Below, piece by piece: positions 371 through 51,260 of a DNA stretch of 64,000 bases. Within the stretch, counting starts at the first letter, position 1. Each line of letters opens with the position of its first letter. The stretch lies in assembly GCA_964569815.1 (NCBI GenBank), contig CAZMUN010000002.1, forward strand, positions 2,701-66,700, given 5' to 3'. A program made the translations under genes and the position numbers. Source of the stretch: an uncultured archaeon (lineage in GTDB: Archaea; Iainarchaeota; Iainarchaeia; Iainarchaeales; GCA-2688035). The notes under the pieces are model-generated. The model saw nothing but the letters and a program-made list of their open reading frames with translations, was not told the DNA's origin and did no database searches.

Positions 371-3300
371 CTATCCGACATAGCTTGGCTTGAATTCGGC
401 ATGGTGCTCTTCGAAGCGGTCGTAGGCTTCTTCAAGCTTTGGCGTTATGGTCGGCTTTGCCTTTTTCAGGGCCTTTTCCAGGTGGGTCCTTCCCACAGGC
501 CCTGGCTTCATCTTTCTTTCCTTTAAGGCAATCAACGCTGCAGACCTTATGAGCCCTTCTATGTCTGCGCCGGTAAAGCCTTCGGTCTGTTCAACCAACT
601 CATCCAATGAAACCTCTTTTGCAAGGGCTACATTCCTTGTATGCACCTTGAAAATCGCCATACGGCCTGTTTTGTCAGGGGCTTCAACCTTTACAAGCTT
701 GTCTATTCTGCCAGGCCTTAAAAGCCCTGGGTCCATGAGGTCGGGCCTGTTGGTTGCCGCCATGAAAACAACGTTCCTGTTTTGTTCTATGCCATCAAGC
801 TCTGTCAAAAGCTGGTTTACAACCCGTTCAGTGGCATGGGAATCGGAGCCCGAGCCGCGCCTTGATGCAATGCTGTCGATTTCGTCAAAGAACACAATGC
901 ATGGTGCAACCTGCCTTGCTTTCCTAAAAACCTTTCTGATGCCTTTTTCGCTGTTATGCGCAAATAGGCCGCCGAACCCTGCAACAAAGTTTTGGCCGGG
1001 CTCAACCGAGATGTCATAGACTGGACCTTCATAGTGGATTTCTTCAATTTTTTTAACGGGGTCCCAAAAGATGTCGGCTTCAACAAGTTTCCACAACTCA
1101 GGGTACTTTTGCCTCTTCAGATCAACAAGGCAAAGGGCCTCTTGTATCTTGCCCTTCCCAACACCACTGTTTTGGGGGTAACTCACAAAAGCCTCTTCAA
1201 GCAGGGACCTTATCTTTGGGTTAACCGGAACCGCATTGCTTCTTACCCAATGGGCTTTGCTTATTTGCTCATGGAGCATTGAGTTTCTTTTTCTGTCAAT
1301 AAAGCCTGCAGGGGCAAAGCGCTTAAAATTTTCCACTCCGAAAATTTGTACCCTGTAGCTGATTGAACCATTCCATTCCTCTTTAACAGCACAGCTGGCA
1401 ACGATTCCTAATTTTAAGAGCAGGAACAGGAGGTCGCTGGCAAGCTTTTCACTAACAGTTGTTGCCTCAATCATATAGCTTTTACCATTGCTTCTGATAG
1501 TGCCGTCACCGCTAAAATAGCCCCGCAGGAAGGCATGCGCAGATGCATTGGATGAAACAAGCAGGTTGTCCGGGATTCTTTTGGCAAACGCACCGCTTAC
1601 TAAGCCAAATGCCTTGAAAACTTGGGTTAAAGTTGTACTGTTTATCACTATTCCTGCGCCCTTAACTGCCGAGTATTTTAAACCAAGCCTGTCAAGCGTT
1701 TCGCAGGCCCTTTGCAGAATCTCTTGGTTTACGATTGAAAGCCTTGGAACGTTGCTGTTGAAGTCACCTTCTGCAACCCACAGCCCAAACAGTTCAAACA
1801 GCTCTTCGGACAAAGGAAGCAAAGCAGGCAGGCGGTTTCTGCAGCCCTTTCCGGAGATTTTAGCTTCGCTTAAATTGAGTTCTTTTTTTGATTTCTGCAA
1901 AAGGCTGGTGAAGTTCTTCAGGCTTAAAGGCAGGTTTTTGTATGCTATATCATAAAGGTATTTTTGCTTCAGCCCGGTTAAAGACTTTGCCTCTTTGTAG
2001 CCAAGCTCGGCAATCAGTTCACTAACTTGCGGCGAGGAAATAAAAAAACCGTTTTTTTGCCGGAACAATTCGAATAGGTTCAGGCAGCCATCCCCAATGG
2101 TTATATTGGGGATTTTGGAGGGAACCGCCAAAACGCTCTTGCCTTCAACAAGCCGCGTAGGGGAAACAGGCTCTATCTCGTTTTCAACGAGCGAGAACAG
2201 GGAATGTTTATCTGTAACCCTGATCTTCCTGCCTGTCTTTGTGGTTATCTGCAGCATCTTTCCCCTAAGAGGATGCTTTATAAAATCAGCTATCTTTGAA
2301 AAGAACGCTTTTCCGTCGTTATCAAAGGTTACCACTTGGAGGCTTTTCCTCTCTTCAACAATTTTTCCAATCTTCTCCCTGAAGATTCTTTTTCCGTCAA
2401 AAACTAGAAGTTCCTCGTCGTAAGGCAGGCTCTCTCCAACCCACATGCTTAAAAGTTCCGGCCCTTTGACGGAAATGAAGTTTGCCTCTGATTCCGAAGC
2501 AACGGCTTTTGCAAGAAGGGTTTTCCCTGTTCCAGGCGGCCCAAAAAGCATTATTCCTGCCGGAGGCTTTATTCCCATTTTTTTAAAGCTTTCAGGCTTC
2601 TTTAAAGGCCATTCAACAGCCTGCTTAAGCTCTTCTTTTGCCTCTTCCAGGTCGCCAACATCGGACCACTTAACATTGGGTATTTCAATGGTCACTTCCC
2701 TTAAGGCAGAGGGCTGCACATCCTTTAAGCCGTTTTGGAAGTCGCGCTTGTTCACTTCCAAGGATTCAAGGATTTCCTGGGGAATCTTTTCCTCCTCCAA
2801 ATCGATTTTTGGAATGTATCTGCGAAGGGCTTTCATTGCAGCCTCTTTTCCCAAGGCAGCTAAATCCGCGCCAACAAAGCCGTGTGTGATGGATGCAAAA
2901 AACTCTAGTTCAACGTCTTTTGCCAAAGGCATTCCCCTTGTGTGAATCAACAGAATTTCTTTCCTTGACTTTTTGTCAGGCACAGGGAACTCTATTTCGC
3001 GGTCAAACCTGCCAGGCCTGCGCAAAGCTTCATCAAGGCTGTTCACGCGGTTGGTTGCTGCAATCACTATTACGTTTCCCCGTGCTTCCAAGCCGTCCAT
3101 AAGGGAAAGTATTTGGGCTACTACACGCCTTTCAACTTCGCCTACAACCTCTTCTCGCTTTGGGGCAATGGCGTCAATTTCGTCAATGAAAATAATGCTT
3201 GGAGCGTTTTCTTCCGCTTCCTTGAAAATCTGCCTTATTCTTTCCTCGGCTTCGCCGACAAACTTTGACATTATTTCAGGGGCATTTATTGAAATAAAGT

Positions 3301-4036
3301 GGGCCTGTGTTTCGCTTGCAACGGCTTTTGCAAGAAGGGTTTTCCCTGTTCCAGGCGGCCCAAACAAAAGAACGCCTTTTGGCGGAACAATTCCAAGCTT
3401 TCTGAACAGCTCAGGGTGCTTCATTGGCAGTTCAACCATTTCGCGGACTTTTCTTATGGGCTCATCCAAGCCGCCTATGTCATCATAGGAAACGGTTGGA
3501 ATGGCTTCAGGCTCTGTTTTGACAGGCTTTTCTTTGAGGGTTATTTGGGTAAAGTCAGTCACCTTTATTATGCCTCTTGGATTGGTGTCTACCACGCGGT
3601 AAACAAAACCTGAGCCAAAAACGCTTATCCAGACACTGTCCCCCAAAGTTAGGGGCCTGCCGAGAAAATTCTTTTTAAGTATGCGGTCATAGCCTGATGC
3701 AATTATCCTTATTTCCTGTGTAGGCGCCAAAACGATTTTTTTTGCTTCTTTTGGGGAACCTTTTTTTACCGTAACCTTTTCTCCAAGGCCGGCTCCTGTG
3801 TTGTGCCTTATGAAGCTGTCCATTCTTATCAAAAGCTTGCCTTCGTCTTCACTGCGGGCAGGCCATACGGTTGCAGCTGTTTTCTTTTGGCCTTCGATTT
3901 CAATTATGTCTCCGCTTGTTATGCCAAGAGTGCGCTTGGTTTCCCTGTCCAGGGTAACGATGTTTCGGCCAACATGTGTAGGGTCAGGGTCTGCTACCTT
4001 TAAGTCTACGCTTTTTTCCTGCATTTTTGCATACAA
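371..4036 (-). CDS. cdc48: Cdc48/VCP-like AAA+ ATPase (N-domain plus D1 and D2), interrupted by an intein in D2
   Basis: Two Walker A sites [16 protein letters not shown]1 has [11 protein letters not shown]2 has WVGE|intein|[29 protein letters not shown]. Extein total is about 728 aa, typical for Cdc48. Confidence 0.9.
953..2431 (-). mobile_element. Intein (about 493 aa) with LAGLIDADG homing-endonuclease domain inside cdc48 D2
   Basis: Begins with Ser right after WVGE and ends ...[23 protein letters not shown], followed by Ser of SEKGIRK. Block B is TDKH. Two LAGLIDADG motifs are [12 protein letters not shown] and [12 protein letters not shown]. Splicing out restores the canonical WVGESEKGIR. 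Confidence 0.85.
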
Positions 4037-18602: not shown

Positions 18603-20336
18603 ATGGCGGACGAAGACTACTTGGCAGACCTTATAAAAAAGGTAAAACAGGCAAAAAAAGAGCAGGCTAAAGCAAAGGCAACTGCACCAAAAAAAGCCGA
18701 AATGCCTGCAGGAATTCCAAAAGAAGTCCAGGAAATAGACCTCAAAAAAATGCCTGAAAAGCAGTCAGAGCCACAGGCAGCCCCCGAAAAGCCAAAACAG
18801 GAACAGGCTGCAAAGGCAATGCCTGAGCCAGAAGAGGAAGAAGAAGCGCCAAGAAAAAGCACTGTTGAAAAAGAGCTGGAAGTGGCAAGCAAAAAAATAG
18901 AAATTGAAAGCTACGGCAACGTAAGAATAATGCAGGTTCCAGGAAAACCGCTTCCCTTTTACATGGTGCCTGTTGCAAGGCCGACAAAGCAGGAAAAAGC
19001 CGTAATAAACACCATAAAAGAGGCAGCCACAAGGCTTATCGCAATCTCGCCATACAGAATTCGCGACCCAACGCAAAGAAGAACGGTTTACAAACAACGC
19101 ATAATGGAAATCCTGAAAAACAGCCCAGAGCTGCACATTCCTGAGAGAAGGTTTGGGTTTTACGCCGAGTCCGTGATAAGGGAAATGGTGGGCTATGGCA
19201 TAATAGACCCGCTTGTAATGGACGACACGCTTGAAGAAATCATGGTGATTGGCGCAAAAAAGCCAGTTTACCTCTTTCACAGAAAATACGAAATGATGTC
19301 AAGCAACATTGAATTCTATTCAGACAAGGAAATAATCGACCTCATAAACAGGATTGCCCGCGTGATAGGAAGGCGCGTAGACATAAGCTCGCCGTTGCTT
19401 GATGCAAGGCTTCCGGACGGAAGCCGTGTCAATGCAACGATTCCGCCTGCCTCTGTAGAGGGGGCAACCCTTACCATAAGAAAATTCAGAAAAGACCCTT
19501 ACACAATAGTAGACCTTTTGAACAACGAAACACTTACAAGCGAAGTTGCCGCATTTTTGTGGCTGTGCGTTGACGGCCTGGGAGCAAAGCCAGCAAACAT
19601 ACTAATTGCAGGAGGAACAGGATCAGGAAAAACCACGACCTTAAACTGCCTGGCTTCCTTTATTCCAGATACTGAACGGGTTATATCAATCGAAGACACG
19701 GCTGAACTGTCACTGCCATTAAAGCACTGGGTGAGAATGGAGGCAAGGCCTCCAGGCCTAGAGGGAAAAGGCGAACTCACATTAGATGTTTTAACCAAAA
19801 ACAGCTTGAGGATGCGCCCAGACAGGATACTTGTGGGAGAGGTAAGGCACGACGAGGCATTCACGCTTTTCACTGCATTGAACACCGGCCACGACGGCTG
19901 TTTAGGGACGATTCACGCAAACTCGCCGCAGGAAACAATTGTTCGTGTTACAAGCCCACCAATGAACGTTCCGGAAGTAATGCTCTCAGGCCTGGACCTG
20001 ATTCTGATAGAGCACAAGCTCCATGACAGGAGAAAGGGAACGATAAGGCGCTTGACAGAGATAGCGGAAGTAAGCGGAGTTCTCTTGAGAAAAGCACAAA
20101 CCCAAACCATTTTTGCAAGGGACCCTGCAAAAGACACGATTGAGAGAACAAACGTTCCCATTAAATACTTTAAAATACTACAAGATTTCACAGGAATGAA
20201 GCAAAAAGACATAGAGGAAAACTGGAAAAAAAGGCAAGTTTTCCTCGAAAAAATGAGGCAAAAGGGCATAAGAAGCCTGGAAGAAGTGAAAAAAGAAACC
20301 CAAAAATTTTACATGGAAGAGAACCAAAATGCCTGA
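18603..20336 (+). CDS. Type IV pilus/archaellum assembly ATPase (FlaI/ArlI, VirB11/GspE superfamily) with a low-complexity K/E/P-rich N-terminal extension
   Basis: Walker A ILIAGGTGSGKTTTLN. Asp box and RIS...GEVR motifs. About 100 aa of lysine-, glutamate-, alanine- and proline-rich sequence at the N-terminus. Confidence 0.85.
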   Translation: MADEDYLADLIKKVKQAKKEQAKAKATAPKKAEMPAGIPKEVQEIDLKKMPEKQSEPQAAPEKPKQEQAAKAMPEPEEEEEAPRKSTVEKELEVASKKIEIESYGNVRIMQVPGKPLPFYMVPVARPTKQEKAVINTIKEAATRLIAISPYRIRDPTQRRTVYKQRIMEILKNSPELHIPERRFGFYAESVIREMVGYGIIDPLVMDDTLEEIMVIGAKKPVYLFHRKYEMMSSNIEFYSDKEIIDLINRIARVIGRRVDISSPLLDARLPDGSRVNATIPPASVEGATLTIRKFRKDPYTIVDLLNNETLTSEVAAFLWLCVDGLGAKPANILIAGGTGSGKTTTLNCLASFIPDTERVISIEDTAELSLPLKHWVRMEARPPGLEGKGELTLDVLTKNSLRMRPDRILVGEVRHDEAFTLFTALNTGHDGCLGTIHANSPQETIVRVTSPPMNVPEVMLSGLDLILIEHKLHDRRKGTIRRLTEIAEVSGVLLRKAQTQTIFARDPAKDTIERTNVPIKYFKILQDFTGMKQKDIEENWKKRQVFLEKMRQKGIRSLEEVKKETQKFYMEENQNA

Positions 20337-21450
20337 AAAAAAGCCAAGCAAGAAAGAAGAGCCCACAGAAATAGACATGGAAAAGGTCGAAAGAATAGTA
20401 AAAAGAATGCGGGACAAGTACCGCGACGAAGGAATGGAATTCGAGGAAGTGGGCGGAACCCTGAAAGAGCTTCGCGGCCTGATAGCAGAGGGAATGGCAG
20501 CCAAAATAGAAATACAAACCATTGACGAGCTAAGAGAAGTGAAAAGCAAGCTGGTAAAATTCCTGGTCAGCGTATACTTAAAGCTTGGCGCAGTCCTAAA
20601 GCCAATAGCAAAAGCAATGGGAAAATTCCCAGAAATGGAAATGCTCTCATTCTACTTGTACAGCGCAAACATGCACTACAGCAGCAAGCAATACATTGCC
20701 TTGACAGTTGCAAGCGCAACCCTTGCATTCCTTGTAGCAATGCTTACATCTGCCGCTGTCTTCACATACCTCAACATAGAGATGGCAACACGAGTAATAG
20801 CAATACTCGTAATATCGGCCCTGACCTTTGTAATAACCTCAGTTGCAATACTAATGGTTCCAAAGCAGAAAGCCATAGCAAGGGGAAACGCAGTAAGCAT
20901 AGAGCTGCCGTTTGCATTAAGGCACATGGCCACAGAGCTAAGGGCCGGAATAGGGCTTTACAGGACCATTCAAGCAGTGGCATCAGCAGACTACCACGAG
21001 CTAAGCGAAGAGTTTGCCCGCGTCATAACAGAGGTAGAGGAAGGCACAGACACACAGGACGCGTTAAGGCACCTTGCCTTGAGAACACAAAGCCGCGCAC
21101 TGAGAACAGCAATAATCCAAATAATCCGCGCACTAAAAACAGGCGGCAACTTAAGCGAAAGCATGAACGACATAGCAGAAGACGTTTCGTTTGAAATGAG
21201 GATGGCTGTCCGCGAATTCGGGCAAAGAATGAACTTCTTTGGAGTGGTCTTTATCTTTGGAGCAATAGTCATGCCCGTAATGATAACCATTTTAGGGGCA
21301 ATAAGAAACAGCCCCATAAAGGCAAGTATGTCAAGCTTTGAAATGCTTCCATTGACACTGCCGGTAATGGCAGCAATATACCTGGCAATAATGCCGTTCG
21401 TTCTGATATTGTTTTTGTTCTACATTAAAACAGCTCAACCAAGGGTGTAA
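20329..21450 (+). CDS. T2SSF-domain membrane platform protein (FlaJ/TadC-like), part 1
   Basis: ELPFALRHMATELRAGIGLYRTIQAVA is a T2SSF signature. Polytopic. Confidence 0.75.
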   Translation: MPEKKPSKKEEPTEIDMEKVERIVKRMRDKYRDEGMEFEEVGGTLKELRGLIAEGMAAKIEIQTIDELREVKSKLVKFLVSVYLKLGAVLKPIAKAMGKFPEMEMLSFYLYSANMHYSSKQYIALTVASATLAFLVAMLTSAAVFTYLNIEMATRVIAILVISALTFVITSVAILMVPKQKAIARGNAVSIELPFALRHMATELRAGIGLYRTIQAVASADYHELSEEFARVITEVEEGTDTQDALRHLALRTQSRALRTAIIQIIRALKTGGNLSESMNDIAEDVSFEMRMAVREFGQRMNFFGVVFIFGAIVMPVMITILGAIRNSPIKASMSSFEMLPLTLPVMAAIYLAIMPFVLILFLFYIKTAQPRV

Positions 21451-21452: not shown

Positions 21453-22397
21453 ATGGCAGAAGAAAAAAAGAAAGGATTGGAATTTTTTGAGAATTACAAA
21501 AAAATGCTGAAAAGCATTAAATTCAAGAGCCCTGCAGAAGCCTGGGTCCTGATATCAACAGTGCTTGCCCTGGCAGGCGCAATCGCAAGCTTTTCAGCCA
21601 TAGCAATTTTGCAGCTTCCTGTTTCACCGCTTGTTTCAACAGTCATATTCCTCGTGATTTTAGATGTTTTGCTTGGATACCCTTACCTTCGCGCGCTAAG
21701 AAGAATAAACGCAATAGAGGAAGCGCTTCCAGATGCCCTGAAACAGCTTGCAGACACCCTGAAGGCAGGCGGAACATATGAATACGCTTTAAGGGAGCTC
21801 TCCACATCAGAATACGGGCCGTTAAGCCACGAAATGGCAGAAGTGCTGAGAAAAATGGAGGAAGGCGAAAACCTGGAAGACAGCCTTAACAGCTTTTCAA
21901 GAAGCGTTGACTCAATCCTGGTAAAAAGAACCATTTCAATAATAAACGACGCAATAAAAGCAGGCGCAGGCTTGGCAGACGTGCTTGAAGAAATATCTGA
22001 TGACGTAAGGGCAATGCACCGCATTGCAAAGGAAAGAATTGCTGGGACGATGCTTCAAGTCATTTTCATTGTAGCAGCAGGCTCAATGGTTGCACCGGTC
22101 ATACTTGGAATGGTCACAACAGTTGTACAGCTTTTAATTGAAACAAGCGCAAGCATAGTAACAGAAAAGGCCCAGATAGTGGAAGCCATTGCAGCAAGAG
22201 ACTTCATCGTAATCCTGATGCAGCTTTACCTAATGCTTGAAGTGATTGCATCAGGTGCCATGATTGCAATGACCCGCGAGGGAAAAATAAGCAAAAGCCT
22301 TATATACATCCCAATGCTTTTATTATTGGCATTTGTTTGCTACTATACGGCAATATTTGTTTCAGGATTAATGATTGGCGGAATCGGAGCAAGATAA
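21453..22397 (+). CDS. T2SSF-domain membrane platform protein (FlaJ/TadB-like), part 2
   Basis: EALPDALKQLADTLKAGGTYEYALRELS is a T2SSF signature. Starts 3 bp after the previous gene, so the platform is split into two genes. Confidence 0.75.
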   Translation: MAEEKKKGLEFFENYKKMLKSIKFKSPAEAWVLISTVLALAGAIASFSAIAILQLPVSPLVSTVIFLVILDVLLGYPYLRALRRINAIEEALPDALKQLADTLKAGGTYEYALRELSTSEYGPLSHEMAEVLRKMEEGENLEDSLNSFSRSVDSILVKRTISIINDAIKAGAGLADVLEEISDDVRAMHRIAKERIAGTMLQVIFIVAAGSMVAPVILGMVTTVVQLLIETSASIVTEKAQIVEAIAARDFIVILMQLYLMLEVIASGAMIAMTREGKISKSLIYIPMLLLLAFVCYYTAIFVSGLMIGGIGAR

Positions 22398-22400: not shown

Positions 22401-22664
22401 ATGGTTTGGAAAGAAAGAAAAGCCCAGGGAAGCATTGAATTGCTTGTGCTGATAGCAGGAGCAGTAATAGTTGTTGCCATTGTGGGCGTAATGCTGAAAA
22501 ACACTGCAACAACTGCTGCAGAACAGGCAGCATGCAAGACCCACAACAGCTGTGAAACATGCGTGGCAGACAGCCAGTGCAAGGCCCTTGACATTATGGG
22601 CGCGGAAATAGCCGACAGCGCATCCTGCACAGCACAGGCATATGAAACATGCGTGGCAACTTAA
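22401..22664 (+). CDS. Small cysteine-rich type IV pilin-like protein (class III signal peptide)
   Basis: RKA|QGSIELLVLIAGAVIVVAIVGV, with KA at -2/-1 and Glu at +5. C-terminus CKTHNSCETCVADSQCKAL...C...C (6 Cys). Confidence 0.7.
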   Translation: MVWKERKAQGSIELLVLIAGAVIVVAIVGVMLKNTATTAAEQAACKTHNSCETCVADSQCKALDIMGAEIADSASCTAQAYETCVAT

Positions 22665-22733
22665 AGCAAAAGAAAACGTTTATAAAGCAGAAAAAGGTAA
22701 TAAAATACATTTAAAAAAAAAGCAAAAACTTTA

Positions 22734-23009
22734 ATGGAGGTCAAAAAAATGGATGTAAGAGGACAAGGTGCATTAGAATACCTTTTGCTGATCGGAGGAG
22801 CAGTGCTGGTAGCAGCAATCGTCATAGCACTGATCACAGGCATACCAGGAACCACACCAGATCCATCAACCCAGGCAAAGTGTGCAACGTACTCGACATG
22901 CGCATTATGTGTGGCTGACGCAGATTGTGCGGCACTTGGATCAGATGGAGCAGAGTATGACGCCTGCGCAGGAATACCTGGATTCGATGGCTGTATAGTC
23001 GACTCATAA
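22734..23009 (+). CDS. Small cysteine-rich type IV pilin-like protein, paralog of the 22401 gene
   Basis: RG|QGALEYLLLIGGAVLVAAIVIAL, then CATYSTCALCVADADCAAL...C...C. Alternative start at 22749. Confidence 0.7.
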   Translation: MEVKKMDVRGQGALEYLLLIGGAVLVAAIVIALITGIPGTTPDPSTQAKCATYSTCALCVADADCAALGSDGAEYDACAGIPGFDGCIVDS

Positions 23010-23027
23010 ATATAGCAAGGTTTTCGC

Positions 23028-23201
23028 ATGGATAACAGGGCACAGGTTAGCATAGAGTACCTGCTGCTTGCATTGTTTGGAATAATCCTGGCAATGGTTG
23101 CGGCAGTGCTGGTTGACGGCATTAGTTCAGTGGCAAGAACAGCACAGGGCAGAATACTTGATTACCGTCATCAGACAATTGCATCCTTATTAGAGACCTA
23201 A
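23028..23201 (+). CDS. 57-aa minor pilin-like protein (class III signal peptide), absent from the ORF track
   Basis: Hand translation MDNRA|QVSIEYLLLALFGIILAMVAAVLVDGISSVARTAQGRILDYRHQTIASLLET. Same RA|QxSIE pattern as its neighbours. Confidence 0.6.
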   Translation: MDNRAQVSIEYLLLALFGIILAMVAAVLVDGISSVARTAQGRILDYRHQTIASLLET

Positions 23202-23222
23202 AAAAGGGGTTTTTGTTTTACC

Positions 23223-24341
23223 ATGGCCCCTTTCCTATTCTTCTTCTTTGTTTCACTGCTTGGCTTAGCCTACGGCACATACACAGACTTCAAGGAAAGA
23301 ATCATACACGACTGGGTAACGTATGGCATGGTCGCTTTGGGGATAGCAGGCCATGCAGTGCTTGCATTCCTTTACCAGGACCCAATGGTTTTTGTAACGG
23401 CTTTGCTCGTAACCACGACAACGTTTTTGGCGGCATACGGCCTATACAAGATAGGCGTCTGGGCAGGCGGAGACGTAAAGCTTTTTGCAGGCCTTGCAGC
23501 CCTGAACCCGGTGAACCCGGCAATTCTGGCAAGGCTTGGCCTGATAACCGAGCCCTTGATTCAGCCAATTGATGCCCCTATTTTTCCGCTGACACTTTTT
23601 ATCTTCAGCCTCTTTGCAATGCTGCCATATGGGGCAATTCTCGCCGCCTCAAGGCTTAGGGCAAACAAGGCTGAAAAGAAGAAGTTCAAGGAAGAGGGCA
23701 AAAAAAGGCTGCTGCAGGCAGTGGAAGCAAGCGCAATAGTTGTGGGCCTGAGCCAAGCGATGGCATTTCTCCAAATAAGCCAATGGCTTGTTCTGCCATT
23801 GCTTGTTTTGTCCGGCCTCGTGCCAAAAAAGCCAAGGCTTGTAATCTCAGCCGTTTTGCTGTTCTACGCGCTGTTTGAAAACGCGGAACTGGCAGCACAG
23901 CAGTTTTTATTTATCGCGGCCTTCTTTTTCGGGCTATACCTTTTGTTCAAGCTATACCATTTGTCCAAAACACTTATGAGAAAGCCTGTTGCAATGGAAA
24001 AGCTTGAGGAAGGAATGATCTCAGCGCAAACCCTTGTAAAAAGCGGGCCAAACGTGAAAGTGGTGCCCGAAATTGGAATAAAAAAGTTAATTAACTACCT
24101 CGCCCTAAATAGGTCCAAAAAGGCAGTGCAATACCTTAAGCCAAAAGGCCGGGTTGTTGTTTCAAACAAGTCGGCAGGAGGCCTAACAGAAGAGGAAATA
24201 AGGGAACTCCAAAAACTTGCGCAGGAGAAAAAAACGCCCTCGGTTTTATGGGTAAAGGAAAGCGCTCCCTTTGTTCCCGCTGTGCTGATTGCATTCCTTG
24301 CACTGAACTTGGTTGGAGACATAATATGGGTTTTGGTTTAA
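23223..24341 (+). CDS. Prepilin/preflagellin peptidase (A24 family, PibD/FlaK-like) with a C-terminal extension
   Basis: Catalytic Asp motifs YTDFKERIIHD and GGDVKLFAGL in a polytopic membrane protein. Confidence 0.8.
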   Translation: MAPFLFFFFVSLLGLAYGTYTDFKERIIHDWVTYGMVALGIAGHAVLAFLYQDPMVFVTALLVTTTTFLAAYGLYKIGVWAGGDVKLFAGLAALNPVNPAILARLGLITEPLIQPIDAPIFPLTLFIFSLFAMLPYGAILAASRLRANKAEKKKFKEEGKKRLLQAVEASAIVVGLSQAMAFLQISQWLVLPLLVLSGLVPKKPRLVISAVLLFYALFENAELAAQQFLFIAAFFFGLYLLFKLYHLSKTLMRKPVAMEKLEEGMISAQTLVKSGPNVKVVPEIGIKKLINYLALNRSKKAVQYLKPKGRVVVSNKSAGGLTEEEIRELQKLAQEKKTPSVLWVKESAPFVPAVLIAFLALNLVGDIIWVLV

Positions 24342-24841
24342 ACAGAAAGGGAAGCATTAGCATTGAATTCATTCTGCTGATTGGCGTGGCCCTGATTTAC
24401 ATAAACGGGGTGGTATGGCCTATTGCAAACAGCAGCAGCGCTGCAACAGCAGACGTCAAAGCTGTTGCAGACACAAAGATTGCAGCCATGAAGCTTGGGA
24501 ATGCAATAAACCAGGCAGCCATTTCATCAGGAGAAATGAAGAAAACAGTCCAGCTCATGGTTCCAAAAAACTCGAAAATAGCCTGTTCGACAACAAGTGC
24601 AAGCTTGGTTTACATGGCGTATGTGGATTACATGGGAGGCTGGAACCCTGATGAAATCAATTGCACGGTTTACCCTAGTGCGCCGGCAGACCCAGAAGGG
24701 TTTGAATGCCAATCCCAAATAGGCCTTATCCAGGCGCCGGACAACTGCATTGCCGGAGCAACGATTTCGGGACCGATTTTGCGCGACATTGTTGTAAAAA
24801 AGAACGACGCTGGAGATATTTCTGTTGAGTGGGCCACATGA
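24326..24841 (+). CDS. Pilin-like protein (class III signal peptide), 171 aa
   Basis: MGFGLNRKG|SISIEFILLIGVALIYI. Start at the ATG at 24326 overlaps the peptidase end by 16 nt. The track ORF from 24248 is an out-of-context extension. Confidence 0.65.
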   Translation: MGFGLNRKGSISIEFILLIGVALIYINGVVWPIANSSSAATADVKAVADTKIAAMKLGNAINQAAISSGEMKKTVQLMVPKNSKIACSTTSASLVYMAYVDYMGGWNPDEINCTVYPSAPADPEGFECQSQIGLIQAPDNCIAGATISGPILRDIVVKKNDAGDISVEWAT

Positions 24842-25203
24842 AGCAAAAAGGCCAGGTAAGCATTGAAGCACTTATTCTTACAGCCGTAGTAATTTTGATG
24901 AGCATATCTGTTTTCGGCTACTACATCCAGATAAAGGATTCTACAACAGGAATGGAGGCCGCAAAAATCGAGGCCCTGCGGCAAATAAGCCAAGCAGGGC
25001 AAAAAGCCACTCTTGAAAGAATTGAATACAAATACGACCCCGGCCCTGGAATTGGCATAAGGTTCTGCTTTTTTTACGAAGCGGAAGCAGGCTTTGCATT
25101 TGACCAAAGCAAGCTCAAGAGCGAAATAGCTTCCCTGACCGCTTTTAACTCAACCGGCATAGAAATCCAGGAAAACCCTGCGGCAGCAAGCAACTGCGAG
25201 TAA
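24838..25203 (+). CDS. Pilin-like protein (class III signal peptide), about 122 aa
   Basis: MKQKG|QVSIEALILTAVVILMSI. ATG at 24838 overlaps the previous stop. Confidence 0.65.
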   Translation: MKQKGQVSIEALILTAVVILMSISVFGYYIQIKDSTTGMEAAKIEALRQISQAGQKATLERIEYKYDPGPGIGIRFCFFYEAEAGFAFDQSKLKSEIASLTAFNSTGIEIQENPAAASNCE

Positions 25204-39728: not shown

Positions 39729-40270
39729 ACAAAAACAAAAGGCTTTTTTTTGCAGTGAAACTGCCCCAAAGCATGAAACAGGAAATCGCTGAAAAGGTTC
39801 TTCCGCTAATTGAGAAAGAAAAATGGAGAAAAGTGCTTCCTGAAAACCTGCATATAACAATCCGTTTTTTGGGGCACCTGCCAAAAGAAGCTGTTAACGG
39901 GCTGGAGCAAAAAACCTGCGCTCTGCAGGAAATGGAGGGCTTTGAAGCCGAACTGAACTGCGCAGGGCATTTCAAAAACAAGGTCTTGTGGCTCGGCATA
40001 GGAAAAGGAACAGAAGAATTCAACCTGCTCCACAAAAAGCTGGAAGAATCCCTTGGAACAAGCAACCAAAGGTTTCACGCACACATAACCCTCGCCAGAA
40101 ACAAGGGCGCAAAAAGCAAAGAAGTGAAAGAGCTTGTGGAAAAAATCAGGGCCGCTTTCGAAAGCAAGAAACTTCAGGTTGAAAGCATTGACCTTATGGA
40201 AAGCTTTCTTCAAAAATCGGGGCCACGCTACGAAAAAGTTTTTTCAGTGCAGTTTAAAGGTCCTGAGTGA
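39725..40270 (+). CDS. thpR: RNA 2',3'-cyclic phosphodiesterase / 2'-5' RNA ligase (2H family, ThpR/LigT)
   Basis: Two HxT/SxR motifs, HITIRF and HAHITLAR. Confidence 0.75.
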   Translation: MNKNKRLFFAVKLPQSMKQEIAEKVLPLIEKEKWRKVLPENLHITIRFLGHLPKEAVNGLEQKTCALQEMEGFEAELNCAGHFKNKVLWLGIGKGTEEFNLLHKKLEESLGTSNQRFHAHITLARNKGAKSKEVKELVEKIRAAFESKKLQVESIDLMESFLQKSGPRYEKVFSVQFKGPE

Positions 40271-41807
40271 TCTTTTTTAAAACAGACTCCTGGTCGAAGT
40301 AGTATTGCTGAACCAGCTGCGAAACCGCTTCCCTGCTTCTTATGCCTTTGGAAAGCATGAATTCAAGAATCCTTTTTCGGATGTATATTTCGCGTTTCAG
40401 CTCGTTCTTTGAAAGGCCTGCGCTTGAAGCAAGCTGTTCAACCAGCTCACTTGGAACCTTTGTTCTTTCAGTGCGGCCTGTTTTTTCATTGAATTCATAG
40501 ATGTTGTTCAGCAAAACGGTTTCATCCATTCGCCCAACTTCAGTAATCTGCTTTATTGTCCTAACCATCCCTTTTCTTTTGTCGTAGTGTCTTTCCATTA
40601 CGATAACCATGTCAAGCAAGGGAATCATTTGCTCAGGAACGTTCATGGGAGCGCTCTTAAGCCTTATCATCATCTCGCGGGCGGAATTGCTGTGCAAAGT
40701 CCCCAAAATGCCCCGATGCCCTGTATCCATTGCCACAAAAAGGGTTTCAGCTTCCTGGCTTCTTACTTCACCCACAATTATTCTGTCAGGGCGCATCCTC
40801 AAAGTGTTTTTTAACAAGTCATCCATTGAAACAGCCAAAATGTCTTTCATCTTTGGCTTGGATTCCATCTGAATCCAGTTTTCCCTTACACCCAAATCCA
40901 GCTCTATTGTGTCCTCTATTGAAATTATCCTCTCATCAAAGGGAATGAAGTCAGCCAAAACATTCATCAAAGTGGTTTTTCCTGAACCGGTTCCACCGGT
41001 AATTATTGTATTCATGGGGTGAAGTTTCATTCCCTCAACCATGGTCCAAAGAAATGCTGCAACTTCGGTGTCAAGGGTATTGTTTGCAATAAAGTCAATT
41101 GCTGAAAGAGGTATTTTGCTGAACTTCCTGATGGTAAGCGTATGGCCAAAAGGGCTCACGTAATTGAAGGTTGCGTTAGCCCTGCTTCCATCAGGCAGCC
41201 TTGCATCCAAAAGAGGGTGTGCTTCATTGAACTGCTTGGAAACCGTTGCAGCAATCCTCTTTAGGAGGCTGAACATGCCGCTTTTTTCATCCACCTCAAT
41301 ATTTGTTTTGCAGTTGCCAAAATGCCTGTGAAAAACAAAAACATTCCTTTCAAAGCCATTGACCATTATTTCTTCCAGCTGAGAATCGGTCATAAGAGGG
41401 CTTATGGCGCCATAGCCAATGCTGTGGTCAAGCACATGCCTTATGAAATCGTTCTTGTGCTCAATGCCAAGCTTTTCGGTCACAGGAAGAAGGTTTAAGT
41501 GAAGAACCTCGAACTGCCTCGCGCTTGGAAGCATTTGGGTAAGGCTTTCAACATCAATTGTCTGGATTACGCTGTTCCTGAACTGTTCCACAATGGACTT
41601 GCTTTTCGAGCCAAGCTCGGCATGCAGTGCATTCAGCGAAGCAGACCTTGTAATGACCCTTACAAGAAGGTCCGCCTTTCTTTTTTCCTCCTTTGAAAGC
41701 CCTGTGGAAAGCACTTCATAGAGATTGTAAGGAAACCCGCTGTAAATTTTTGCCTTGGGCTTGCTTTCAAGCAATTTTCCTTTCACAGGCTTAAGGTTCT
41801 CATCCAT
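40254..41807 (-). CDS. Second FlaI/VirB11-family secretion/pilus ATPase (solo, no adjacent platform gene)
   Basis: Walker A IITGGTGSGKTTLMNVL, Asp box, GEVR. Paralog of the 18603 ATPase with a different N-terminal domain. Confidence 0.8.
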   Translation of the reverse strand: MDENLKPVKGKLLESKPKAKIYSGFPYNLYEVLSTGLSKEEKRKADLLVRVITRSASLNALHAELGSKSKSIVEQFRNSVIQTIDVESLTQMLPSARQFEVLHLNLLPVTEKLGIEHKNDFIRHVLDHSIGYGAISPLMTDSQLEEIMVNGFERNVFVFHRHFGNCKTNIEVDEKSGMFSLLKRIAATVSKQFNEAHPLLDARLPDGSRANATFNYVSPFGHTLTIRKFSKIPLSAIDFIANNTLDTEVAAFLWTMVEGMKLHPMNTIITGGTGSGKTTLMNVLADFIPFDERIISIEDTIELDLGVRENWIQMESKPKMKDILAVSMDDLLKNTLRMRPDRIIVGEVRSQEAETLFVAMDTGHRGILGTLHSNSAREMMIRLKSAPMNVPEQMIPLLDMVIVMERHYDKRKGMVRTIKQITEVGRMDETVLLNNIYEFNEKTGRTERTKVPSELVEQLASSAGLSKNELKREIYIRKRILEFMLSKGIRSREAVSQLVQQYYFDQESVLKKITQDL

Positions 41808-45197: not shown

Positions 45198-47264
45198 TTG
45201 GACATGATTGAAAAAGTAAGGCTTCAGAACTGGAAAACCCACGCCGACAGCTCTTTCCAGTTTGATAAAGGCACAAATGTTTTGATAGGGCAAATGGGTT
45301 CAGGGAAAAGCAGTGTAATGGACGCTGTCTGCTTTGCCCTTTTTGGAACCTTTCCAAGCCTGCAGAGCAGAAAGGTTTCCTTGGAAGAAACCCTTACAAA
45401 CAAGCCAAACAAGGCAGACCAGGCCTTCATTGAGCTCGAGTTTTCATACAAGGGCAAAAAATACCGCGTGGAAAGAACTGTGAAAAGAAAGGGAAACAGC
45501 GAAGCCAAAATATACTGCGAAGGAAAATTTTTGGCAGGGCCAAAGCCCCGGGACGTAAACCAGGAAGTAGAAAAAGCCATTGAAATAAACTACAATCTTT
45601 TCAGCCGCGCAGTCTACTCTGAACAAAACGAAATAGACTACTTTTTGCGGCTAAGCCCAAAAGACCGAAAAACCAAATTCGACGAGCTTCTTGAATTGCA
45701 AAAATACGAAACCGTTCGCGGCAATGCAGTAACGGCCTTGAACAGGTTAAAGGCAAAAGCCAAAGACAAAAGGAAATGGGTTGAAGAGCAAAAAAGCCAG
45801 GCCAGGCCCGAAGAAGAAAAAGGGCTTAAGGAAAGAATCTTGGAAAAAGAAAAGGAAAACAAGGAGCTTTTGGAAACAATAGAGAAAAAAACAGCAGGCC
45901 TGGAAAAGCTTGAAAAATCGGTTAAGGGAATGGAAAAAACCGAAACCGAGTTCAGAAGGCTGCAAAACGCCACAGGAGAAAAAAAAGCAATCAAAAAACA
46001 GCTTGAGAAAGACATTGACGAGATGAAAAAAGAGGCGCAGAAAAGCCCTAAAGAAATAGAAGCCGTGTTTGAAGCCCTTGAAAAAGAAGAAAAAGAAAAA
46101 GAAAAACAAGCCAAGGAAACAGAGCAAAAGCTGGAGAAAGCAAGAGAGCAAAAAAGCTCGGCTGAAAAGCAGGCTGCATTAAACCAAAACAAGGCAGAAG
46201 AGCTCAGCAAACACCTTCAAGAGCTTCAAGGCCTTGGGGCAGAATGCCCGGTATGCAAGCAGAAGCTTGAAGAAAAAACCAGGGAAGCGCTCCTGGAAGA
46301 AGAAAAAAAAGAGCTAAAAAAAGCCGCACTTGAAATGGAAAAAGCCCTGAAGTCAGAAGCAGAAGCCAAAGCAAGGGTAAAGGACTGCGAAAAGGAAGCA
46401 AAAAAAGTTTCAGAGGAAAAAGAAAAGCTTACAGAAAAAAGAAATGCCTTGAAACAGGAAAAAGACGCTATTAAAAAGCTGGCTGAAAAAACCAGCTGCC
46501 TTGAAAAAAACTCAAAAGAGCTTGTTGAACAAGAAGAAAAACTCAAAAAGATGGAATTTGATGAAAAAAAGCTTTTGGACCAGAGAAAAAAACTGGTTGA
46601 AGAAAACGCGGCAATAAATGCAGCAAAAAATGCTGTAAAGGCAAACCAGCAGCTTTCCCAAGAAATGAGAAAAAGCCTTGGAAGAATAGAACAAACAAGA
46701 GCCAGGATAAAAGAACAAGAGAAAAACGTGAAGGCAATTGAAGCCAACTCGGAAAAGATGAACCTTTTTGTAAACAGCCTGCTTGCATCACAGCAGGAGC
46801 TCAGGGCAACGCTTATTGCAACCATAAACCAGGCAATGGACAGCATCTGGAAACGCGTTTACCCTTACAAGGACTACCTTTCGGCAAAAATGGATGTCGA
46901 ACAAGGAAACTACGAATTGCGCGTAAAAGACCTTAACGGAAACTGGGTTCGGGTTGAAGGAATTTTAAGCGGCGGGGAAAGAAGCGCTGCAGCAATCTGC
47001 ATAAGGATTGCTTTTTCGTTTGTTTTGACAAGGAACCTGAGCTGGATTATTTTAGACGAGCCAACACACAACCTTGACAGCGAAGCAGTGCAAACCCTCT
47101 CAGAAATGATGCAGCAGCATTTGCCAAAACTGGTTGAACAGATTTTTGTAATAACACACGACATGGAAATGAAAAAGGCCGCTACAGGCTCACTCTATGT
47201 CCTGGAAAGGGAAAAAAACAGTGACTCGGCAACAAGGCCTGTTTTAAGGCCAATCGGCAACTAG
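45198..47264 (+). CDS. rad50: Rad50/SbcC-family SMC-like ATPase with CxxC zinc hook
   Basis: Walker A GQMGSGKSS. Long coiled coil with central hook CPVCKQKL. Signature LSGGERSAAAI, Walker B ILDEP, D-loop. Confidence 0.8.
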   Translation: MDMIEKVRLQNWKTHADSSFQFDKGTNVLIGQMGSGKSSVMDAVCFALFGTFPSLQSRKVSLEETLTNKPNKADQAFIELEFSYKGKKYRVERTVKRKGNSEAKIYCEGKFLAGPKPRDVNQEVEKAIEINYNLFSRAVYSEQNEIDYFLRLSPKDRKTKFDELLELQKYETVRGNAVTALNRLKAKAKDKRKWVEEQKSQARPEEEKGLKERILEKEKENKELLETIEKKTAGLEKLEKSVKGMEKTETEFRRLQNATGEKKAIKKQLEKDIDEMKKEAQKSPKEIEAVFEALEKEEKEKEKQAKETEQKLEKAREQKSSAEKQAALNQNKAEELSKHLQELQGLGAECPVCKQKLEEKTREALLEEEKKELKKAALEMEKALKSEAEAKARVKDCEKEAKKVSEEKEKLTEKRNALKQEKDAIKKLAEKTSCLEKNSKELVEQEEKLKKMEFDEKKLLDQRKKLVEENAAINAAKNAVKANQQLSQEMRKSLGRIEQTRARIKEQEKNVKAIEANSEKMNLFVNSLLASQQELRATLIATINQAMDSIWKRVYPYKDYLSAKMDVEQGNYELRVKDLNGNWVRVEGILSGGERSAAAICIRIAFSFVLTRNLSWIILDEPTHNLDSEAVQTLSEMMQQHLPKLVEQIFVITHDMEMKKAATGSLYVLEREKNSDSATRPVLRPIGN

Positions 47265-47455
47265 CTCTTTTTTTGGGCTTTTATTTGCCTTGTGAGAAAA
47301 CCGGCAATCATGTTTCTGTCAAACCTGCTTAACTCGATGTCAAGTTCGCCCAAAACCTGCTTGTTTTTCTCAAAATTGGCAGTAAAACGTTCAGGAAATT
47401 TTTCAAGAAGGGTTTCAACCCTCATTTTAATAGATCGTGGAACCGCCTTACCCAA
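47261..47455 (-). CDS. rps17e: Ribosomal protein S17e
   Basis: MGKAVPRSIKMRVETLLEKFPERFTANFEKNKQVLGEL...RNMIAGFLTR matches S17e. Confidence 0.8.
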   Translation of the reverse strand: MGKAVPRSIKMRVETLLEKFPERFTANFEKNKQVLGELDIELSRFDRNMIAGFLTRQIKAQKKS

Positions 47456-47465
47456 AAAGAAAACC

Positions 47466-47669
47466 TCAAACGCCTACTTTTTCAACCCGGCCGTCAGAAA
47501 AACGCCTTATCACAGTCAAAGGAAGAACGCCTTCCTCCAGCTCTTTTTTGGCCAAAATATAAGGAGTGGAACCATCTTTGGCCTTAAGCAAGGGCGGCGC
47601 GCCAAAAGCTAGCTGAAGAGCGCGGGCGCTCACAAGCCTTGCCTTCTCAAACCTGGTTGCTTTGCTCAT
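47466..47669 (-). CDS. rpoK: DNA-directed RNA polymerase subunit K (Rpb6/omega homolog)
   Basis: MSKATRFEKARLVSARALQLAFGAPPLL...EEGVLPLTVIRR is the classic RpoK pattern. Confidence 0.8.
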   Translation of the reverse strand: MSKATRFEKARLVSARALQLAFGAPPLLKAKDGSTPYILAKKELEEGVLPLTVIRRFSDGRVEKVGV

Positions 47670-47747
47670 AAAAGTGCACCAAAAAAAAGTCCTTTTTCAG
47701 TTATAATAAAAGGTATTGAGAAAATTTAAAAGCCTTCTTGTTTGAGC

Positions 47748-49253
47748 CTAATTGGGTTTTTTTGTTGTTTTTAGAAGAATTGCCTGTTTTTGGGAAAACT
47801 GTTTCACCAAACTGTTGGGTTTTTGGCTGCTCAAAAAAACTTTGTTCTCTTTAAGGATAACATTGCTTTTCTTTTCAGCGGCAAAGCTGTGGAAATGGTC
47901 CAAAACAGAGTATTGGATGGCTTGAATGGCAGAACAAAGGCTTTCAGTGTAAAAGCCGCTTTTTTCGCTGGAAAGCTGTTTGAAAAGGGATGAAACAAGC
48001 CTTGAAGCCGATTCAGAAACAGATTCAAGCAAAAGGTATTCCAGGTTGTAAGACAAGGCGTTAAGTGAAAGAACCTTGTGCTGCTTCACTGACTCCAGGC
48101 TTACTTTATCCAGTTCCTTTTCTGCAAAATTGGAAACAGAATTCAGCTCAAACACGGCTTTTGAAACAAGGCTTTCCTTTTTCAGGCAAAACCAGGCCGC
48201 TTCTTTAAGGGAAACTATTTTTGCCTTTCCTTCTTCCCGAAGCCTGAAAGCGTCTGCAAGAGGCACTAAAGCTTTTTGGTTTCTAAAAAATGGCCCAACC
48301 GGAATTGATTTCAGGAAAAACTCTTTTTTTCTCCGAAGCCTGCTTTCCTTGTCTTTGTGGCTTTTGTGAAAACTTGAAGCAAACAGTTTTGAACATGATT
48401 CAAAGAAAAAGCCGTCTTTCTGCATCTCAACAGAAACAAGGCTGCTTGGCAGAATGTTTCTTTCAAAAATGGTTTTTGGCCTGCAGCAGTCGCAGCATAT
48501 GGTGTCAGGGCCAAGGTTGAAAAAAGGCTTTGTCAAAAGGGCGGCCCAAAGCTTTGAAAAATCTGCTTCAGCCAAGTCAGGCATTTTTGGCAAAGGCTCT
48601 TCCATCGAAAGCTTGCTTGGGTTTGTTTTGTTTGTTGAAAGCCCTGCCTGCCATAAGGCATTCTGAAGCAAAATTTCCTGCCGAAAAAACGGGTTTGAGG
48701 GAATTGCTTCCAGCTTTGTCTTCAAAAGCTTGCTTAACCCAATAAGAGAAATGGTTTTTTTGGCTGTTTCAGGGCTGTCTTTTATCACCTGTTTCAGGGT
48801 TTCTGGAAGAGGTTCGGAAAAAAACTTTACCCTGGCTTTTGGAAAGGCCGTGGTCTCGTTTTTGACAAACTCTTTGTCTGAAAAAAATGAAAAGCAGTCA
48901 AAATAGCTCCAGCCTTTTTCAAGCAAAAACTGGCGCTCTGGCTCAATAACCAAAGGCATGAAGCCTGTTGCCTTGAACAGGGCCTCGGCCAAAAGCTTTA
49001 AGTCTGAAAAGGCTCCTGCCACAACCTTGAAGCTTTTTTCACAGTTCTGCAACTTGAAGCGGGCTCTTTCCAGTGAAAGAATTTCTTTCAAGCCTTCAGA
49101 TGAAAGGAAGGTTTTTTTAACAAAGAAGGAGGGGAAAAAGGGCTGCCTGGACATTCTCCTAAAACCTAGCTGGGAGAAATTCAGGAGCATTGCCCTCTTT
49201 TCCTCAACATACTTTAGGTCGGTTAGCCAAAACTGTGAGGCTTTCAAAGTCAT
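47748..49253 (-). CDS. Hypothetical 501-aa protein with a CCDCC cysteine cluster, function unknown
   Basis: Long ORF co-directional with herA/nurA and rpoK. Motif NLGPDTICCDCCRPK. No Walker, phosphoesterase or other diagnostic motifs seen. Confidence 0.45.
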   Translation of the reverse strand: MTLKASQFWLTDLKYVEEKRAMLLNFSQLGFRRMSRQPFFPSFFVKKTFLSSEGLKEILSLERARFKLQNCEKSFKVVAGAFSDLKLLAEALFKATGFMPLVIEPERQFLLEKGWSYFDCFSFFSDKEFVKNETTAFPKARVKFFSEPLPETLKQVIKDSPETAKKTISLIGLSKLLKTKLEAIPSNPFFRQEILLQNALWQAGLSTNKTNPSKLSMEEPLPKMPDLAEADFSKLWAALLTKPFFNLGPDTICCDCCRPKTIFERNILPSSLVSVEMQKDGFFFESCSKLFASSFHKSHKDKESRLRRKKEFFLKSIPVGPFFRNQKALVPLADAFRLREEGKAKIVSLKEAAWFCLKKESLVSKAVFELNSVSNFAEKELDKVSLESVKQHKVLSLNALSYNLEYLLLESVSESASRLVSSLFKQLSSEKSGFYTESLCSAIQAIQYSVLDHFHSFAAEKKSNVILKENKVFLSSQKPNSLVKQFSQKQAILLKTTKKPN

Positions 49254-49320
49254 TGCATTAGGAAGAGGTTTTGCAGGCTTTTAAAGAAAGGAGAAAGAGA
49301 CCGGGTTTCCGGTAATATAT

Positions 49321-49674: not shown

Positions 49675-49720
49675 GCTTTAAATAATGCATTAAGTCATTA
49701 AAAAGTCTTTCGCTTTTTAG

Positions 49721-51256: not shown

Positions 51257-51260
51257 AAAA

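Follow-up and report, generated by a model that had tools for sequence, protein, structure and literature searches.

Two six-cysteine mini-pilins in an Epd/Tad-like pilus locus of an uncultured Iainarchaeota archaeon

Introduction

The Epd pili of Methanococcus maripaludis and the bacterial Tad/Flp pili are the described systems closest to a pilus locus found in 64,000 nucleotides (nt) of DNA from an uncultured archaeon of the Iainarchaeota (assembly GCA_964569815.1, contig CAZMUN010000002.1, positions 2,701 to 66,700 of the forward strand; this whole stretch is called the window below). Two neighbouring genes of the locus encode very short prepilins, here named A and B, each with six cysteines following the pilin helix. 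Among archaeal type IV filament (TFF) systems, 'system 1', the Epd type, is defined by one ATPase and two platform genes and occurs in methanogens, Thermococcales and DPANN archaea; the bacterial Tad machinery is related to the archaeal Epd system (preprint 10.64898/2026.04.22.720090). The window locus has one ATPase and two separate platform genes beside its pilins, and the syntenic metagenome contig L001 and related loci have the same order, so that we assign the A/B locus by gene content to the Epd/Tad-like (system 1) clusters. System 1 reportedly equals clade 1 of Makarova et al. 2016, and the relationship between the Tad machinery and the archaeal Epd system is said to have been described by Denise et al. 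in 2019.

The similarities to the Epd pili of M. maripaludis are several. A and B have a class III signal with Gln at +1 and match PF04021, as do the EppA-processed DUF361/PF04021 pilins, and the locus combines the ATPase and two platform genes with a dedicated A24 peptidase and several pilin genes, one of which, pilin C, encodes a very short headless protein. Judged by size and shape alone, C (52 amino acids (aa) when mature, Cys-free) fits an EpdE-type headless pilin (arCOG06620). However, the major pilin EpdE is headless, glycosylated and Cys-independent, whereas the window has two pilins with a six-Cys knob of ~45 residues, the B head contains no N-x-S/T sequon, the host is a DPANN archaeon and not a methanogen, and the window peptidase stays below the cut-off of both the FlaK and the EppA model. 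With bacterial Tad/Flp pili the locus shares very short pilins: in this family of loci, where three pilin gene positions (slots 1 to 3) precede the peptidase gene, slots 1 and 3 and many slot-2 relatives are helices of Flp size. Flp pilins are headless and disulfide-free and have another cleavage motif and peptidase type, while A and B add a cross-linked mini-domain. Bacterial type IVa pilins also have an N-terminal helix with Glu5 and an exposed C-terminal region that is disulfide-fixed and strain-variable, but their head is an alpha/beta roll with four strands and at least 100 residues that bears a single disulfide loop. A and B have neither an alpha/beta roll head nor a single C-terminal disulfide loop.

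DPANN archaea are ultra-small, mostly uncultured and in many cases reliant on other cells. Their pili are prime candidates for a partner-contact organelle, and to our knowledge nothing is known about the structure of a DPANN pilus. The first-pass annotation of the window called a cross-linked head unusual for an archaeal pilin, and the literature agrees with this: the only solved archaeal precedent that we found, the type IV pilin of Pyrobaculum arsenaticum (electron cryo-microscopy), has an intramolecular disulfide, Cys80-Cys139, in its outer domain (PMC7347861). That is a single bond in a full-size beta-rich domain of ~140 residues in a hyperthermophile. The P. arsenaticum pilin belongs to a different TFF subsystem, 4E (preprint 10.64898/2026.04.22.720090), and has no sequence or fold match to A or B. 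Conserved Cys residues have been noted in Thermoproteales pilus components (PMC4858521). Our literature search for Cys-rich mini-head pilins in DPANN returned general surveys only and no description of such proteins, and a three-disulfide mini-head on an Epd-type pilin, as we propose for A and B, appears to be undescribed. The A/B locus is a real, undescribed variant of a known protein kind and not a new kind of system. It shows that one DPANN phylum makes pilins intermediate between headless subunits of the Flp/EpdE type and classical globular pilins. It also gives a compact model for the gain and exchange of pilin heads, a candidate new mini-fold, and, in its helix, promoter and slot order, a marker for finding and comparing such loci in metagenomes.

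Pilins A and B

The first-pass annotation had proposed two paralogous pilins. Both open reading frames (ORFs) were found again, with class III signal peptides and inside the pilus locus. Pilin A (22401-22664, + strand) is an 87-aa precursor with six Cys (C45, C51, C54, C60, C76, C84), and predicted cleavage at MVWKERKA/QGSIE would leave a mature protein of 79 aa, composed of a slot-1-type helix and a six-Cys head. The ORF of pilin B (22734-23009, + strand) covers 91 aa as opened. Its true start is almost certainly the ATG at 22749, because GGAGGT lies 7 nt upstream, homologs begin with MDVKGQG or MNIKGQG and the public copy of B (P0004) has 86 aa. The resulting 86-aa precursor has six Cys, and predicted cleavage at MDVRG/QGALE would give an 81-aa mature protein with a near-invariant slot-2 helix and a six-Cys head.

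In A (MVWKERKA/QGSIELLVLIAGAVIVVAIVGV) and in B (MDVRG/QGALEYLLLIGGAVLVAAIVIAL) a short basic leader ends in a small residue at -1 and is followed by Gln at +1, which the Epd peptidase EppA needs (PMC4390842), by Glu at +5 and by a hydrophobic helix; these are the hallmarks of class III prepilins. PF04021 (Class_IIIsignal) is matched above its gathering score of 23.7 bits by both A (30.3 bits) and B (30.2 bits), all listed homologs carry it, and public databases label these proteins as 'class III signal peptide-containing protein' or UPF0333; no curated NCBIfam model matched A, B or C. We assign A and B on these features to the archaeal type IV pilins with class III signal peptide (PF04021/DUF361/UPF0333). 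The two proteins are 43% identical (BLASTP, E = 2e-16 in a single comparison) and all six Cys line up in a MAFFT alignment, which puts their paralogy far above chance.

The Cys motif given for the pair, C-x4-[ST]-C-x2-C-V-A-D-x2-C-x-A-L, fits the strings CKTHNSCETCVADSQCKAL and CATYSTCALCVADADCAAL, both of which are present, although each protein has exactly two further Cys and not two to three. As a conserved pattern it needs one correction. The full VAD..C.AL part is confined to the closest relatives P0002, P0005 and P0006 and partly P0007, and what is kept more widely is a C-x5-C-x2-C core followed by three Cys at variable spacing.

Cysteines and fold of the head

The six Cys of each head most likely form three disulfide bonds. 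Conservation of the Cys positions had been named as a check on the original observation, and all six are kept in homologs, both in L001 and in 39 aligned 5-2-type sequences, where they are invariant, as they also are in 41 aligned sequences. It is important to note that the 39 sequences were picked by their C-x5-C-x2-C spacing, so that only the invariance of the last three Cys is an independent result. The sole other invariant head residue in this set is an aromatic one, three positions before the last Cys.

The number of Cys is almost always even. Among 123 database homologs the mature part has six Cys in 90 cases, four in 16, none in 13, eight in two and an odd number in two, one of which is clearly frameshifted; thus 108 of the 110 Cys-containing proteins have an even count. 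A motif scan of 80 loci found 280 class III pilins with 0, 2, 4, 6, 8, 14 or 26 Cys and only five with an odd number (130 of 135 Cys-containing pilins even). The first Cys is at mature position ~40 in most homologs. Beyond it the arrangement varies, the frameworks being 5-2-n-m-k (the A/B type), 8-n-0-17-k (with a CC pair), 8-3-10-19-9, 8-14-19 (four Cys) and 3-13-8-3-8. Even within one subfamily the spacing is 5-19 residues between Cys 3 and 4, 12-27 between Cys 4 and 5 and 7-29 between Cys 5 and 6. Even parity, variable spacing and turnover of the framework between close relatives favour disulfides over a metal site.

Regarding the pairing of the bonds, Cys gain and loss across subfamilies gives an indication for one of them. 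A Cys at C1+6 is found only in six-Cys proteins (37/37), and elsewhere the position is F, Y, I or W in 48 of 56 cases; moreover, the four-Cys protein P0037 resembles B minus C2 and C5. Since C2 is confined to six-Cys proteins and P0037 is like B without these two residues, C2 and C5 were probably gained together and are probably bonded to each other.

Structure prediction with AlphaFold2 (AF2) from a family alignment gave models of moderate confidence and the same topology for both proteins (mean predicted local distance difference test, pLDDT, 76.6 for B and 80.3 for A): a long N-terminal helix, short helices at 39-46 and 51-56 and a small sheet made of 60-64 and 79-86. The single long helix is predicted at residues 11-33 in A and 6-30 in B, and the head would be an outer knob of ~45 residues. 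It matches no solved fold in structure comparison, and a search of PDB sequences with the family profile gave chance matches only (transmembrane helices and an apple-domain protein). Its weak fold neighbours are small disulfide-rich domains. The C-terminal domain of a variant surface glycoprotein (VSG; 2jwg), the plexin PSI domain and the Kazal-type LDTI have no significant structural or sequence similarity to the head and serve as analogy only. A head-only profile run against 1.84 billion representative proteins found 15 matches at E <= 0.001. One is a chance hit to an RCC1 repeat; in the others the head begins at residue 36-40 of a pilin 87-110 aa long, the exception being a 65-aa sequence without helix that is probably truncated. 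Because the profile matched pilins alone apart from the RCC1 hit, the head is best read as a rare pilin-specific invention and not as a borrowed domain.

Slot order and the origin of pilin A

B as query has 449 homologs. A as query retrieves three database proteins, namely itself (public copy P0001, for which an exact look-up gave no contig), its L001 ortholog and P0003, a 50-aa Cys-free protein with the same helix; the relative P0002 led to the L001 locus. In species genomes of GTDB 79 loci were found, nearly all of them labelled Candidatus Iainarchaeum or Diapherotrites, or as an unclassified archaeon. The contigs of five pilus loci (L003, L011, L073, L010 and L042) sit in bins named Chloroflexi, Falkowbacteria, Bacteroidetes or Thaumarchaeota, and these names probably reflect mis-binning and not transfer.

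The related loci share a fixed order: slot 1, slot 2, slot 3, peptidase, a pilin of 150-180 aa and one of ~110-120 aa. Slot 1 holds a Cys-free mini-pilin of 38-47 aa (Q[GAST]SIE...LLKN...), and in slot 2 stand one or several pilins, each made of the near-invariant helix QGALEYLLLIGGAVLVAAIVIAL and a tail that varies. Slot 3 is occupied in most related loci, immediately ahead of the peptidase, by a Cys-free pilin of ~52 aa (QVSIEYLL...ILDYR..TIASLL). The 150-180-aa pilin after the peptidase occurs in many loci and mostly has four Cys, while the last pilin has zero to four, in many loci two. In this scheme B occupies slot 2 and C slot 3. The slot-2 tail is of three types: it is absent (~50-aa Flp-like proteins, often in 2-4 tandem copies), a Cys-rich mini-head (75-113 aa) or a domain of 130-175 aa, mostly with two Cys. 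In loci with a platform protein 2 that shares 71-78% of its residues with that of the window, residues 1-37 of B are still 86-95% identical. This helix tops the conservation of the locus, as the ATPase, platform proteins and peptidase are only 58-84% identical in the same loci, all of which differ in the framework of the head (8-3-10-19-9, 5-2-11-17-10, 8-16-0-17-7 and 8-14-19).

Pilin A does not fit one slot. Over the helix (mature residues 1-32) its identity reaches 88% with Cys-free slot-1 pilins but does not exceed 56% with slot-2 helices. When the ortholog of A is set aside, the highest-scoring match of its head is the head of the neighbouring B. Because the two parts have these different matches, we interpret A as a slot-1 pilin, normally headless, that has been fused to a copied slot-2 (B) head.

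Two further observations concern the heads of relatives. In L012 tandem slot-2 genes at 6015 and 6399 encode identical mature proteins of 91 aa, and the pilin in slot-1 position (5641) shares this six-Cys framework in its head, which suggests a recent duplication and, after A, another slot-1 pilin that received a copied head. Larger Cys-rich class III pilin-like proteins are encoded in L079 (6015 onward; 349 aa, 26 Cys) and L026 (1482 onward; 249 aa, 14 Cys), both with even counts, and disulfide-rich surface proteins seem to be a wider habit of the phylum.

Conservation and expression of the pilin genes

L001, a contig from a Joint Genome Institute (JGI) metagenome, has the same eleven genes in identical order and allows the coding status of A and B to be judged (Nei-Gojobori method). 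Compared with its L001 ortholog, A is 71% identical in amino acids, with a ratio of non-synonymous to synonymous divergence (dN/dS) of 0.17 and a synonymous divergence (dS) of 0.94. B and C are each 98% identical, with dN/dS 0.02 and dS 0.40, and for the ATPase, platform genes and peptidase the values are 81-95%, 0.04-0.15 and 0.8-1.0. All 12 Cys of A and B are retained. That the ORFs might be non-coding had been allowed for in the first-pass annotation; with these values in a syntenic locus, A and B are genuine genes under purifying selection. A 153-aa antisense ORF (22661-23122, - strand) that spans all of B was considered and rejected as a gene, since it is the + frame that has been conserved (dN/dS 0.02); the Ala/Gly-rich + strand frame probably gives rise to the antisense one as an artefact.

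Synonymous divergence of B and C (window 22749-23201 versus L001 4169-4627) is about half that of the flanking genes, and dS falls to 0.18 in the helix-coding part of B. This could reflect codon or mRNA constraint from high expression, or a recent recombination between the lineages of the window and L001.

The two pilin genes also differ in their upstream sequences. A starts 3 nt after the stop codon of the platform protein 2 gene. Between A and B there is an A+T-rich spacer of 84 nt which holds AGAAAACG-TTTATAAA (22671-22686), a AATAAAATACA block and GGAGGT. We read 22671-22709 (+ strand) as a candidate internal archaeal promoter for B, with a purine-rich element resembling the transcription factor B recognition element (BRE) at 22671-22678, the TATA box TTTATAAA at 22679-22686 and the AATAAAATACA block at 22699-22709, which is the likely transcription start region. 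The Shine-Dalgarno (SD) sequence GGAGGT is at 22736-22741 (+ strand), 7 nt upstream of the B start at 22749, and GGAGG is kept before the slot-2 genes of relatives. BRE/TATA, AATAAAATACA block and SD are all conserved across an alignment of 12 loci, in which platform protein 2 is 56-91% identical to that of the window. In a wider set, 32 of 77 first slot-2 genes have a TATA-like motif upstream, as against 3.5% of random windows.

Downstream of C, 9 nt after its stop codon, the oligo-T run TTTTTGTTTT (23210-23219, + strand) is a candidate archaeal terminator or attenuator. Of 52 loci, 40 have a T-run no more than 40 nt beyond the slot-3 stop codon; the frequency is 32% behind slot 2, 17% behind slot 1 and 15% in random windows. 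B and C are probably made from a separately promoted transcript, and this reading together with the halved dS suggests high expression.

Roles of the pilins and alternative explanations

It is, in our judgement, reasonably probable that A and B are subunits of an Epd/Tad-like pilus of Iainarchaeota with three-disulfide knobs, B forming the main shaft and A being a low-abundance chimera. Both would be synthesised with a short basic leader, and the A24 peptidase encoded downstream in the same locus would cut at [G/A]/Q, as the motif indicates, leaving Gln at +1 and Glu at +5. By analogy with the family, the ATPase and the two platform proteins would then pull the hydrophobic helix of ~32 residues from the membrane into the packed core of the filament. 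The remaining ~45 residues are expected from the parity and conservation of Cys to fold into a surface knob of two helices and a beta-sheet held by three disulfides, with the C2-C5 bond replacing an aromatic core residue of relatives. B, made from its own strong promoter and likely alongside the headless C, would be the main shaft subunit, and its variable head would form the outer face of the pilus. A would be co-transcribed with the machinery genes and is probably of low abundance.

The most conserved helix, a variable head, its own conserved candidate promoter and a strong SD make B the probable main subunit of the shaft, with C as a possible partner; we also count for this role the tandem copies of slot 2 in several loci and its headless, Flp-like form in others. 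A may plausibly be a minor pilin, because its gene follows the platform stop by 3 nt and it has a slot-1 helix. The first-pass annotation had seen in the Cys-rich head the mark of a specialised tip or adhesin subunit. For B we do not uphold this, given its conserved and often duplicated slot, its top-conserved helix, its own promoter and its strong SD, and pilins D and E of the same locus are better candidates for minor or tip pilins; for A it may hold.

Three alternatives have to be weighed against these roles. A and/or B could be scarce pilins, located at the tip or scattered, whose knob binds a ligand on a host cell or surface, while C builds the shaft, like EpdE in Methanococcus and Flp in Tad pili. 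This possibility, which we hold to be unlikely but worth keeping in view, draws on the presence of the 52-aa headless C in nearly every related locus and its 98% conservation, and on M. maripaludis, where the major Epd pilin has no globular domain (preprint 10.64898/2026.04.22.720090) and is only 6.4 kDa in size (PMC4390842). Heads also differ strongly between species, as a specificity determinant would, and the A gene, 3 nt behind the platform stop and without its own promoter, fits a minor pilin. Against a tip role speak the conserved consensus promoter and strong SD of B, its helix as the most conserved element of the locus, slot-2 genes that are often in tandem and are Flp-like mini-pilins in head-free loci, the larger pilins D and E, which suit a tip better, and the little surface that a knob of 45 residues gives a dedicated adhesin. 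We consider it highly improbable that A and B are not filament subunits at all, but class III proteins that are processed by the peptidase and then left membrane-anchored or released, for example as disulfide-rich effectors or surface tags. The weak fold neighbours of the head are small domains rich in disulfides, of a type characteristic of secreted toxins and inhibitors. Sulfolobus sugar-binding proteins carry the same kind of class III signal. Some archaea do use class III signals on non-pilin substrates (PibD substrates, PMC4390842). However, in 80 loci the genes are flanked by the platform genes on one side and the peptidase on the other, the extreme conservation of the helix is expected for core packing and not for a mere anchor, Glu+5 is retained, and the head profile finds the domain only behind pilin helices, never free or in other architectures.

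The third alternative concerns the chemistry of the head. The first-pass annotation had left it between disulfides and a metal site, and of the two the disulfides are better supported. That the six Cys hold Zn, Fe or an Fe-S cluster and so stabilise the pilus surface by metal, or even make it redox-active, seems to us very doubtful. The run C-x5-C-x2-C-x5-C is superficially like cluster-binding motifs, many hosts of the family inhabit anoxic water, where thiolates would ligate a metal more readily than they would be oxidised, and no disulfide oxidase was seen among the window ORFs scanned. A site with Cys ligands would have a fixed ligand spacing across homologs, such as paired CxxC or CxxCxxCxxxC, but A and B have a single CxxC and their other Cys spacings vary by 14-22 residues among relatives. 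Even counts, including four and eight, the wide ranges between Cys 3 and 6, close relatives with frameworks lacking any CxxC (8-14-19, for example) and the exchange of C2 for aromatic core residues all speak against metal ligation. There is no conserved His, Asp or other ligand and no CxxCH, and neither Pfam nor fold comparison links the head to zinc-ribbon or ferredoxin families; heme (CxxCH) and Fe-S motifs were considered in the heads and rejected from the sequence.

Several points weigh against a shaft built of disulfide-linked B, the reading that we prefer. The whole case for filament, cleavage and disulfides is drawn from sequence. Headless C is as conserved as B (98%, dN/dS 0.02) and, being similar to the headless Methanococcus major pilin EpdE, could be the main subunit in place of B. 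The low dS of B and C could come from recent recombination rather than from high expression. The B heads of the window and L001 are 96% identical, unlike a head under continuous diversifying selection at that time scale. Many Iainarchaeota inhabit low-oxygen groundwater, a setting that does not favour disulfide formation, and no oxidase of the DsbA, VKOR or thioredoxin type was found among the 39 longer window ORFs scanned outside the pilus locus, a search that covers ORFs with a Pfam match.

A wider interpretation, rather speculative in our view, is that slot 2 acts across the phylum as a replaceable-head cassette, with an almost invariant helix segment, an exchangeable head of a new disulfide-knotted fold and the conserved slot-3 gene, in which the head sets recognition of partners or surfaces or helps to evade viruses. 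The head segment would be swapped or rebuilt over short evolutionary times and, in the genome of the window, would have been copied onto a slot-1 pilin. A role in partner recognition or virus evasion is considered because Iainarchaeota are DPANN archaea, many members of which depend on hosts; the viruses evaded would be those that use pili as receptors.

Other genes of the locus and of the window

The pilus locus opens with the gene for a secretion/assembly ATPase (T2SSE, FlaI/TadA-like; 18603-20336, + strand; PF00437, E=1.1e-44; NCBIfam FlaI and TadA below cut-offs), which is 90% identical in amino acids to its L001 ortholog. It is followed on the same strand by two platform membrane proteins (T2SSF, TadB/C-like), at 20329-21450 (PF00482, E=8.2e-21) and 21453-22397 (PF00482, E=7e-18). 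Behind A and B lies pilin C (23028-23201, + strand), a 57-aa precursor for a 52-aa mature protein, Cys-free, headless, Flp/EpdE-like and retained throughout the phylum, with a PF04021 score of 18.3 bits, below the cut-off. The prepilin (class III signal) peptidase (23223-24341, + strand) is of the A24 type with an archaeal C-terminal domain (PF01478, E=4.6e-12; PF06819, Arc_PepC, E=1.8e-10) and scores 37 bits with the NCBIfam EppA model (cut-off 450) and 50 bits with FlaK (cut-off 330).

Two larger pilins close the locus, both on the + strand. D (24326-24841) is a precursor of ~171 aa with four Cys, a class III motif (RKG/SISIE) and a hydrophobic helix, and its L001 ortholog is 75% identical; E (24838-25203) is a precursor of ~121 aa (KQKG/QVSIE) with two Cys, 17.9 bits for PF04021, which is below the cut-off, and an L001 ortholog 79% identical. 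We regard both as candidate minor pilins. All five pilins, A to E, share the basic leader, the small residue at -1, Gln at +1 (Ser in D), Glu at +5 and the hydrophobic helix, and a motif scan of the window found no class III pilin beyond them.

The remaining genes of the window are ordinary archaeal housekeeping genes (CDC48, topoisomerase, RFC, ThrRS, ABCE1, Elp3, Rad50/HerA/NurA). At 40254-41807 (- strand) there is a gene for another secretion ATPase of the T2SSE family, whose C-terminal domain is PilB3-like; because the motif scan detected no class III pilin gene in its vicinity, it appears to be an orphan or part of another system. The 331-aa protein encoded at 60618-61613 (- strand) has a C-terminal H-type lectin domain and is possibly a carbohydrate-binding surface protein, relevant to cell-cell contact of DPANN archaea. 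At 371-4036 (- strand) a 1221-aa double AAA ATPase of the CDC48 type is split by an intein with a LAGLIDADG homing endonuclease (Pfam Intein_splicing, LAGLIDADG_3). Finally, the genes of an archaeal set for DNA end resection lie close together at 45198-52541, namely those of a Rad50-like SMC ATPase (+ strand), the HerA helicase and the NurA nuclease (both - strand), and amid these genes lies a 501-aa ORF (47748-49253, - strand) without a Pfam match.

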